A stretch of 11,737 nucleotides of DNA from an uncultured archaeon (GTDB taxonomy: Archaea; Asgardarchaeota; Lokiarchaeia; Sigyniarchaeales; SOKP01), in the NCBI GenBank assembly GCA_964525635.1, contig CAZGJX010000118.1:1-11737 (forward strand), read 5' to 3'. How positions within the stretch are numbered: the first letter of the stretch is position 1; every line of letters starts with the position of its first letter. Below are positions 2,700 through 11,737 of this stretch, piece after piece. Position numbers and translations under genes: made by a program. The notes beneath the pieces were generated by a model. That model was not told the DNA's origin. It saw only the letters and a list, made by a program, of their open reading frames with translations, and searched no databases.

Positions 2700-2853
2700 A
2701 ATTATATTAATAATCAGCAAGATATAACTAAATAAAGAATATATGTAAGCCAATCCAACTCTACGTTGTTCAAAATGAAAAAGAGAAGAATGAAAATTAT
2801 TCTAATAGATTTAAATAATTTCCAGGAATAATCAAAAAAATATCAAATCTCAA

Positions 2854-3537
2854 TTATGTACGTTTTAAAATAAACGATGCTATAATTAATGTAATAACTA
2901 ACGCAAATATAGATTGAGATATTGTAAAAATCACCAATCCCGTTATACCGTCTAACATTGCCGAAATTGGTATCCCAAAAGTAAAATAAATGGAAAGTAA
3001 CAATCTTTTTAATTTTTTGTGGATATTTATATCAGTTATATTTGAAGATGAAATCGATCGTCTTAAACGCATCGATGTATATATCAAATTTATAAAAATC
3101 CAAATTGTGATACTTGTCATATACATTGGATTTCGTTGAAAATTCAGAGGTTGAATGGATTGTATTATAATAAAATTAGGTATCCATACCACTATCCATA
3201 AAGCTCCAATAAGAAATGGAGTTAATTTAAAAAAAGTTGTTTTTTTCACTAAGTTCCAACTTTCACAAAAAATCCAGATCCCAATCATAAGACAGGGAAT
3301 ACCGAGAATAATACCCATGACGCTAATTCTAATCACAATTTTAATGACTTCCTCGCTAAATTCAAACGTGCTAATCATTATCATCATTATATTTACTAAA
3401 ATTCCAAAATAAGCAACCACCAAAAATTGGTTTCCTTTATATTTTGGATTTCGGAAATAGATTATCAATATGAATGTAAAAAGAATTATAAAAGTGATAA
3501 GATGAAAAATATTCGAAATAATAAATTCTAGTTTCAT
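2854..3537 (-). CDS. Stand-alone seven-transmembrane protein, HisKA_7TM-like sensor domain without output domain
   Basis: Seven hydrophobic segments in 227 aa. The TM1-TM2 loop IYFRNPKYKGNQF resembles the RNPKxxxNxxF loop of histidine-kinase N-terminal 7TM domains. There is a basic loop between TM5 and TM6 and no cytoplasmic kinase or cyclase domain. Confidence 0.75.
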   Translation of the reverse strand: MKLEFIISNIFHLITFIILFTFILIIYFRNPKYKGNQFLVVAYFGILVNIMMIMISTFEFSEEVIKIVIRISVMGIILGIPCLMIGIWIFCESWNLVKKTTFFKLTPFLIGALWIVVWIPNFIIIQSIQPLNFQRNPMYMTSITIWIFINLIYTSMRLRRSISSSNITDINIHKKLKRLLLSIYFTFGIPISAMLDGITGLVIFTISQSIFALVITLIIASFILKRT

Positions 3538-3802
3538 AAATTATTCATCTTTTTTTTCTAATTTAAATTTAGGGTAATCCATAGTATCCAAAAAAAAGGA
3601 CAAATCTGGAAATTATGTATATTTAATTCATATTTGGCTATAGTTCTAAGTGATAGGATTTTAATAAATTAGAATCCTTATTGTCTCCTGATTTTTAAAT
3701 TAGAAGAAATTATTAATAGCTTTAACATATAAAATATTAATTCATAAGGAAGATAATAAAAATAAGATGTTATAATAGATATTATTTTATATTGGATTAA
3801 TA

Positions 3803-3943
3803 ATTCAAGAGGATTTCCCTCAATTGGAGAATTAATTTCCTATTTCAGGAAAGAGAATTATCGCATTTCGGGGGAGGCTATATGTCGCCCTTGAGACCGT
3901 CCGTTGTCGGTCACTCAGGCATCTTTCCTCTTGGAATAGATGC
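3803..3943. ncRNA. Candidate structured non-coding RNA or element (unidentified)
   Basis: 36/60 G+C at 3861-3920 inside an extremely AT-rich intergenic region, with several complementary helices (see findings). I could not confirm a match to any known family. Confidence 0.45.
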
Positions 3944-4346
3944 AAAAAGATTTGTCCAGGAATGTCCAGATTTTTTACAACGGTTTAATTTATAATTTTT
4001 AAGATTTTAATATTTTACATTATATAATAGAGAATTTTTTGTAGGATGGGAACGTTGAAATAAAATATCAAATAGTTTTGTTTGGTGAATTTCCTCAATA
4101 TTATCATAAAGATTAAATGGATTTGTCAGATCAGAAATTATTTCTTTTTTCCTTATTAATTCTTTGTTCTTAATAATCTAATTTTTAGATTTTTTTTTTC
4201 AATACTCCCCCACACTTTATGAAAATTCTATGAATAAAGATCGTGAAATGTATGTTTCATGCAAAAATATAGATACTAAAATATTGTGTAGATATGTTAG
4301 TTTTGTTAACTTTGAATATTTTAATTTTGAAAAATTTAAATATTAA

Positions 4347-5153
4347 GAAGAATATATCAGTGAAGTTAATTTTCTTGGAGGAAAACCATTATTAAATTAT
4401 AATCTGCTAATCAATCTCATTGAAGAGACAAAAAAGTTTGATATTCCAAAGATAGGACTACCAACGAACGGTTATTGGGGTAAAGATGAGGAAACTGCTA
4501 AGAAATATGCTCAAAAACTAAAAGAGGTTGGAGTTAATTTAATTGGGTTTAGTGCTGATGCATTCCACCAAGAATTTATTCCTCTTGAAAATGTAAAACG
4601 AGCAATTAAAGCAGCTCATAAAGCAGAGATAGAAACTATACTTATTAATGCGCAAATTATTGGTGCTCCAAATGAATCAAATTATTTCAATACAAAAACA
4701 AATAAGATATGTAAAAGTATCTCTAATGAGTTTAAGTTCTGTCAAATAATAAAAAGCCCATTACAAGTAAGAGGACGAGCTATAAAGAATCTTTTAAAAT
4801 ATTACCATATAAATACTATACCTTCAGAAAAGTGCTCTATTTTTAGAGCGCCTATGTATATGATAGATCCTAATGGATGGGTTTTCATTCAAGGATGTCA
4901 AGGTATTTGTTTGGGAAATGCTAAAAAAGATTCATTATTAAAAATAATTAGTGAATTTAAGCCTAGAAAACATCCTATAATAGGTAAAGTAATGGGTAAA
5001 GGAGGAGTGTGTAGTCTCCTTGAGTTGGCCATTGAAAAAGGGTATGAACCATTAGAGAAATATGCCGATAAATGTCATTTGTGTTATAGCACGCAGAAAT
5101 TTCTACGATCTTATTTTCCTAATATACTTGAACCTTCAAACTTATGGGACTAG
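4347..5153 (+). pseudogene. 5'-truncated radical SAM protein with C-terminal Cys-containing (SPASM/twitch-like) region
   Basis: The frame of track ORF 4854..5153 is open back to TAA at 4344-4346 and reads EVNFLGGKPLL…TNGYWG…FSADAFHQEFIP…VRGRA…C…IDPNGWV…GC…LGN…DKCHLC (268 aa). These are radical SAM core motifs, but CxxxCxxC and a start codon are missing and GGEP reads GGKP. Confidence 0.85.
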
Positions 5154-11629: not shown

Positions 11630-11737
11630 ATTATAATTTTAAATTTAAACCTATCAATTGGGATTTATTTTACCAAACTGATGAGGGTAAGTCATAGTTT
11701 CCAAAAATGATGATAAATCTGGACAGTATTTAAACGG

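Follow-up and report, generated by a model that had tools for sequence, protein, structure and literature searches.

A 412-bp protein-less IS607 derivative, very probably carrying an omegaRNA scaffold, in an archaeal genome

Standalone mobilised omegaRNAs acting in trans have already been described, according to the account of OMEGA systems given in PMC10691335, which summarises Altae-Tran et al. 2021. The IS607 family of insertion sequences is characterised by GG termini, the absence of a target duplication, and subterminal repeats that are bound by the transposase TnpA (PMC6188088). In TnpB omegaRNAs, and also in the guide RNAs of Cas12, the scaffold nucleotides beside the guide form a conserved pseudoknot (PMC10097598), and a pseudoknot is also found in the reRNA of the IS607 element ISFba1 (PMC11061315). 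A role in retention or homing has been described for TnpB (10.1101/2023.03.14.532601; PMC8612924).

The stretch of DNA analysed here (the window, 11,737 nucleotides) contains a GC-rich island at 3803-3943, for which the initial annotation favoured a structured RNA of riboswitch type. The island is not a riboswitch; it forms the 3′-terminal third of an ORF-less mobile element 412 bp long. The whole element occupies 3572-3983 on the + strand, with GG at both termini, and is delimited by the edges of multi-copy conservation and by an empty site. The original box is too small, because the full unit is 3572-3983 and one partner of a pseudoknot (3977-3983) lies outside it. It is very probable that 3572-3983 is a protein-less derivative of IS607, and that the GC-rich island is its omegaRNA (reRNA) scaffold. 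This is based on direct observation of the repeat family and its ends, of the genes of the parents, of an empty site, and of the covariation and the strand. The standalone omegaRNA, or mini-IS607, is a kind of element that is already known.

As in the standalone omegaRNA loci of OMEGA systems, so far as they are described in PMC10691335, the element encodes no protein, keeps the transposon ends and the scaffold, has effector-bearing parents in the genome, and is followed by a presumptive guide in the flank. On the same description, it differs from those loci in having an IS607-type parent, a TnpB-like nuclease of about twice the usual size (733-800 aa), and a head with two hairpins. It also resembles the PATE/MITE-type derivatives of IS200/IS605 elements, in that it is short, ORF-less and multi-copy and has kept both parent ends. 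However, its parent has a serine recombinase (IS607) and not a Y1 transposase, and it does not have palindromic end hairpins of the kind that are recognised in single-stranded form.

The assembly to which the window belongs (4.45 Mb in 245 contigs) was searched for related sequences. It contains no 16S rRNA, and its archaeal origin is supported by a match to archaeal SRP RNA close to the cut-off. About 13 related right ends are present in the genome, many of them at contig ends, and about seven near-identical right ends lie exactly at the end of a contig (C75, C169, C88, C19 at both ends, C126 and C31). Copies at contig ends are the usual signature of multi-copy insertion sequences, which break the assembly. 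A second copy with the same short architecture is found at C75:8684-9122, and the core recurs on the minus strand at C22:18006-18123, directly 3′ of an ORF of 733 aa. The copy-number check that had been proposed for the island therefore identifies it as a repeat family, both in its own genome and in relatives. All the copies can be aligned through ...GTCCAGATTTTTT(A/G)CAACGG and then diverge at once; every copy diverges right after ...GG(T), and in the window this boundary is at 3983.

The left end (LE, 3572-3620, +) consists of a GGG terminus, a CATAGT box, an A-run, and the subterminal repeats GGACA and GGAAA. It was recognised by its match to the sequence upstream of tnpA in C22, and further LE copies form the ends of contigs C122, C160, C233, C244 and C118. 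The flanks of the copies diverge immediately before AGGGTAA, and it follows that the element starts at the GG of 3572-3573. Similarity to the LE of the C22 parent runs on to about 3690, which is 5 nt before the position of the tnpA start codon. A local alignment of window 3560-3690 with the C22 LE indicates that 3621-3690 (+) is a remnant of the 5′ untranslated region of the parent tnpA. The right end (RE, 3862-3983) matches the region 3′ of tnpB in C22, and finishes with the GG of 3982-3983.

The motif GGACA/TGTCC occurs twice at each end, with a 10-nt spacing, and is inverted between LE and RE. The two LE repeats (+) are GGACA at 3598-3602 and GGAAA at 3608-3612, 10 nt apart, and are presumed to be TnpA binding sites; they recur inverted in the RE. 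There, TGTCC at 3953-3957 and 3963-3967, also at 10-nt spacing, forms with a T-run a segment (3953-3976, +) that is invariant in the copies from this genome. The block AATGTCCAGATTTTT shows zero variation among the same copies. Since it overlaps the TGTCC repeats it is read as a site for the transposase at the level of DNA, presumably a TnpA binding site.

The organisation is like that of IS607 and IS1535 (PMC6188088), with GG termini, no target-site duplication, asymmetric ends carrying subterminal repeats, and a serine-recombinase TnpA in the genome. No target-site duplication is shared among the flanks of the window, C75 and C22 copies. Unlike IS607 and IS1535, the window copy encodes no protein: 3572-3983 contains no ORF of at least 50 aa with a start codon, and the open frames of the element have no Pfam match at E ≤ 1. 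The possibility that the island is a coding remnant was considered and rejected, the open frames across it being without a Pfam match.

Directly 5′ of the core in C22, the C-terminal 250 aa of the 733-aa ORF contain a RuvC triad and a zinc ribbon. The ORF matches PF07282 (Cas12f1-like_TNB), and its match to the NCBIfam model guided_TnpB is below the cut-off of that model. The ORF upstream of this nuclease is an IS607 TnpA serine recombinase (NF033518, 162.7 bits against a cut-off of 110). A second parent, in C51, combines an ORF of about 800 aa with a TnpA and has a core of its own. The genome has intact IS607 TnpA genes at three places (C1, C51 and C22), each of them exceeding the NF033518 cut-off. 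Matches to a covariance model of the core (R1) lie directly 3′ of TnpB-like ORFs in C22, in C51 and in several relatives, and the sequence upstream of them encodes the RuvC-III motif D-x-NAA-x-NI. The high-copy parent element is absent from the assembly of this MAG.

The parent nucleases are about twice the usual size of TnpB, with 733 aa at C22:18113-20311 (L016:2611-4812, minus strand) and about 800 aa at C51:16354-18621 (minus strand). Their N-terminal 470 aa or so have no match in Pfam or NCBIfam. Relatives of the 733-aa nuclease are rare, forming 19 clusters in a large protein collection, with lengths of 700-880 aa, and most of them come from contigs about 3 kb in length. Among solved structures the closest is that of a Cas12f, and the match is confined to the last 170 aa.

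A diverged subfamily is found at C93:1720-2300, C51:16224-16330 (minus strand) and C128:4600-4968. In the C93/C51 subfamily, again unlike IS607 and IS1535, both termini have TG in place of GG, and the pseudoknot described below covaries (CAGUUAC/GUAACUG). The TG termini, together with the matching change in the pseudoknot, link the recombination core to the RNA structure. At the far end of the window (11684-11732), the high-copy IS607 element is represented by an LE (AGGGTAAGTCATAG...AAATCTGGACAG) that is cut off where the contig ends. Just past the window end there is probably a full-length IS607 insertion, and a copy beyond 11732 would explain why the contig stops there.

The G+C content of the window is 25%. 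The fraction is 0.19 in the intergenic region 3538-3802, 0.45 in 3803-3943 and 0.60 in 3861-3920, and the reported island of 60% G+C is thus confirmed by count. The sequences quoted in the initial annotation were all found in the places that it gave, as were its four hairpins. Of these, TTTCCT/AGGAAA at 3836-3852 is real and covarying, and GGGGAGGC...GTCGCCC at 3871-3890 is stem P1 of the putative omegaRNA. Comparative support well above chance is obtained for the hairpin at 3836-3852, for P1, and for the inner 5 bp of the long hairpin discussed below. Folding of the + strand was compared with dinucleotide shuffles, giving z = -2.6 for 3803-3943 and z = -3.0 for 3855-3950. This is a moderate excess, and meets the concern raised at the outset that folding might be no better than in shuffled controls. 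The corresponding values for the minus strand are -2.5 and -1.4.

The Rfam search that had been suggested was run with cmscan, and gave no match at the gathering score in the whole window. Nothing relevant was found over 3600-4200 at E ≤ 10, and the likeness to the Moco RNA motif that had been remarked on is accordingly not upheld. Rfam also gave no match at E ≤ 0.1 for the parent right end or for the other families described below, and ARAGORN found no tRNA or tmRNA in the window. The Rfam result and the covariation together bear out the original description of a structured non-coding RNA without an Rfam family.

Base pairs were counted on an alignment made with R1, which contains 37 copies, 35 of them distinct. 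In the structure as a whole 86.8% of cells are paired, compared with 29-48% when the partners are slid by 1-3 columns. Changes on both sides are seen in 19 of the 25 pairs, and none of 500 shuffles was as good. Stem P1 (3868-3894, +), which was obtained from the MFE fold and covariation, pairs 3868-3878 with 3884-3894 and has a conserved UAUAU loop; 78.1% of its cells are paired, and 9/10 pairs are changed on both sides. Stem P2 (3895-3912, +) pairs 3895-3899 with 3908-3912 and is identified by covariation, with 98.1% of cells paired and 4/5 pairs changed on both sides. The P2 loop (3900-3907) holds the 5′ strand of the pseudoknot, CCGUUGU (3901-3907, +), which pairs with ACAACGG at 3977-3983 (+). 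The terminal GG of this 3′ strand is the IS607 crossover dinucleotide and forms the right boundary of the element, where conservation stops. For the pseudoknot, 96.9% of cells are paired and 5/7 pairs are changed on both sides, as in CCGUUG/CAACGG versus CAGUUA/UAACUG. The model used for searching and alignment did not contain the pseudoknot helix. These pair counts, which bear on the covariation check proposed initially, show strong covariation of P1, P2 and the pseudoknot over the 35 distinct copies.

The pseudoknot joins the loop of P2 to the last 7 nt of the element. A pseudoknot coinciding with the edge of conservation is as would be expected of a TnpB omegaRNA scaffold followed by a guide derived from the flank. 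The segment 3984-4003 (+), which is variable in every copy, is the presumptive guide, by analogy with TnpB omegaRNAs (PMC8612924, PMC10097598). Just before the 3′ strand of the pseudoknot there is a conserved T6 run (3971-3976), which could be an archaeal terminator, limiting read-through into the guide.

Among paired cells, the ratio of G.U to A.C is 62:20. This excess of G.U points to an RNA of the + strand, which is the same strand as tnpB in the parents. It bears on the suggestion that the helices are the architecture of a recombination site in DNA, serving the transposase only and having no role as a guide RNA. In keeping with that suggestion, both the AATGTCCAGATTTTT block, with its lack of variation, and the GGACA/TGTCC repeats of the two ends resemble DNA sites bound by protein. 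However, IS607 TnpA acts on double-stranded ends by way of subterminal repeats and not hairpins (PMC6188088), and P1, P2 and the pseudoknot covary as the sequence drifts. The covariation and the G.U excess imply selection on RNA from one strand, and we consider a purely DNA-level function to be very improbable.

The preferred reading, as a guide RNA scaffold, is consistent with a comparison with known RNAs. Like the ISFba1/RAGATH-18-derived reRNA (PMC11061315) and the ISDra2 omegaRNA (PMC10097598), the RNA is at the right end of the element, downstream of tnpB, and has several stems and a pseudoknot on the guide side. It differs from the ISFba1 and ISDra2 RNAs in the layout of its helices, and in that the 3′ strand of the pseudoknot includes the GG crossover dinucleotide. 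It also shares no similarity with them in sequence or covariance model, and neither the window copy nor the parent right end (L016) matches RAGATH-18 or any other Rfam family. The RNA would have the same role as RAGATH-18 RNAs and belongs to a different family.

The long hairpin reported at 3889-3919 stands in part. Its inner five pairs are P2 and are conserved, whereas the outer ones form in no more than about 35-60% of copies. The extended form was rejected, because the outer pairs compete with the 3′ arm of P1, which is better supported. The remaining hairpin, GCAUCU...AGAUGC (3919-3943, +), is specific to a subfamily and is found only in the window, in C75, and in two other genomes, G019 (L043) and G008 (L042). 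Its interior varies, and it stands where other copies have a short GGA/UCC stem. Three competing partners had been proposed for 3922-3933, namely its own hairpin and complements at 3806-3813 and 3847-3854. Both complements, of 8 nt each, do exist in the window copy, but these pairings are not conserved in sister copies. A conformational switch was also rejected: the interior of the hairpin is different in C75, and the G019 and G008 copies lack the whole 5′ module.

It is unlikely, though conceivable, that the element is a dead relic, in other words a mini-IS607 by descent whose RNA is no longer made or used, and whose structure only shows that it was copied recently from parents that are active. 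No other copy has exactly the form of the window copy, which has an A.G mismatch within P1 and in which the second LE repeat is degenerate (GGAAA and not GGACA), all of which would fit with decay. Against this, the window copy scores 89.6 bits against R1, where the best copies have about 100 bits, and it keeps all seven pairs of the pseudoknot. Through compensatory changes, P1 stays paired in the window, in C75 and in the parents, and the same subfamily hairpin has been kept in two other genera.

Evidence for insertion comes from two sister species in the same genus (G001:C167 and G003:C488), in which window 3568-3982 is missing at the orthologous site. Their empty sites consist of the equivalent of 2824-3567 (84% identity), then about 9-12 nt, and then the equivalent of 3983-4247. 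The alignment implies that 412 bp are missing exactly between the boundaries that were deduced from the comparison of repeats. GG was not seen at the junction of these empty sites, where the flanks are about 84% identical with indels, a divergence too great for the original target to be reconstructed. The C75 copy lies within an ORF, and when it is taken out a frame of at least 117 aa again reads through the junction. A mobile-element end was among the options listed in the initial annotation, and this proves to be correct, given the parent ends, the empty site and the multi-copy family.

On its left side, the mini-element is about 34-35 nt upstream of the start codon of a 7TM gene (2854-3537, minus strand; gap 3538-3571). 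A TATA-like sequence, TTTAAAT, is still present beside the 7TM gene, and everything farther upstream has been replaced by the insertion. The insertion may have altered the promoter context of the 7TM gene relative to the sister species. On the right side there is a radical-SAM/SPASM-like frame (4182-5153, +), with a GGKPLL motif and a Cys-rich C-terminal part. It has no ATG, GTG or TTG start before 4854, and it joins 4182-4343 save for one in-frame TAA at 4344-4346. It may represent a pseudogene or a gene that has been truncated, and it is within this frame, near 4247, that the similarity of the DNA to the sister species ends.

The short distance to the 7TM start codon and the existence of the 8-nt alternative complements of 3922-3933 are what might be expected of a riboswitch or cis-regulatory leader, acting through alternative pairings on the 7TM gene (minus strand) or on the downstream gene (plus strand). 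This reading is scarcely credible. The element is missing from the orthologous intergenic region in both sister species; its copies occur in unrelated contexts, one of them inside an ORF; the alternative pairings lack conservation; and Rfam has no matching family. The proposal of a minus-strand leader for the 7TM gene fails in addition on the + orientation indicated by the G.U excess. A mobile element that has landed beside the 7TM gene is the preferred explanation.

Of the 135 family genomes, 22 have R1 matches, between 1 and 29 in each and often at contig ends, and the distribution is patchy and variable in copy number. Two of these genomes (G019 and G008) have independent deletion derivatives, in which a few tnpA codons are joined straight to the core.

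The short copies of several genera have kept a conserved 5′ head module, which occupies 3783-3860 (+) in the window and was defined from an alignment (A4), pair counts and a second model (R2). It contains a TATA-like box (3785-3792), the sequence ATTGGA (3791-3796), hairpin 1 (3809-3812/3818-3821) and hairpin 2 (3836-3841/3847-3852), all on the + strand. Hairpin 1 is an invariant GAGG/CCUC. In alignment A4 hairpin 2 is 91.7% paired, with 5/6 pairs changed on both sides. The head would supply the promoter-proximal 5′ part of guide-only elements.

The head model R2 has roughly 110 matches, spread over 21 of the 135 genomes, and a single genome may contain as many as 23. In most cases the head stands before another RNA core and not beside an R1 core; R2 occurs in some genomes that lack R1, and R1 in others that lack R2. 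One head-bearing family (G002:C113, G021 and G017) has its own IS607-like ends and a pseudoknot between a loop and the 3′ end, CUCUAAC/GUUAGAG. Another family, of about 480 nt, has the same head and a different structured core that ends in ...AAGGGA...CCAAACTTCGTATGAACA. Its copies are at C22:16030-16295 (minus strand), C106:3170-3427 (minus strand), C58:21107-21371 and C36:27245-27385, with many more in G002 (L064-L066, L068, L069); it has no Rfam match and no adjoining TnpB-like ORF. The head also stands before another GC-rich segment (GTAGCGAGTCCCGTTCCCGCT...), in three copies that are about 96% identical (C1:52649-53000; C29:7807-8135 and C32:16059-16391, both minus strand). The C22/C58/C106/C36 and C1/C29/C32 families showed no significant similarity to the right ends of the other TnpB genes in the genome.

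The sharing of a two-hairpin head with other families of mini-elements is a modestly new point. The head precedes at least three different RNA cores, and is present in genomes that lack the R1 core. On these grounds we make the tentative suggestion that it is a portable cassette for expression or stabilisation, which defines a long-lived selfish lineage of guide-only elements. The mini-elements would then not be one-off deletions, but would exchange one omegaRNA core for another and live at the expense of several TnpB families, among them the double-sized ones. This is a possibility that we hold with some doubt.

A mechanism can be proposed for the element in the window, in which transcription, binding by TnpB and use of a guide are steps that we infer. 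IS607 TnpA from elsewhere in the genome would move the element in trans, with crossover at the terminal GG. Transcription of the + strand would begin in the head region and run past the right end into the flank. The scaffold would be bound in trans by the large TnpB-like nuclease of the parents (C22, 733 aa, or C51, about 800 aa). The window copy is assumed to be compatible with one of these two nucleases, its subfamily hairpin replacing the third stem of the parents. The first 16-20 nt or so of the flank, from 3984, would act as a guide against the element-free allele, and so favour retention of the element.

The analysis removes a false riboswitch candidate, and puts in its place a natural guide-only derivative of IS607 that is well bounded, with exact ends, an empty site, and a pseudoknotted scaffold backed by covariation. 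The scaffold model (P1, P2, the pseudoknot, and a guide start at 3984) defines a minimal RNA partner apart from the protein gene, and could be of use in tests of the unusually large nucleases of TnpB type that this genome encodes. That several families share the 5′ head hints at a modular lineage of guide-only elements with an evolution of its own.
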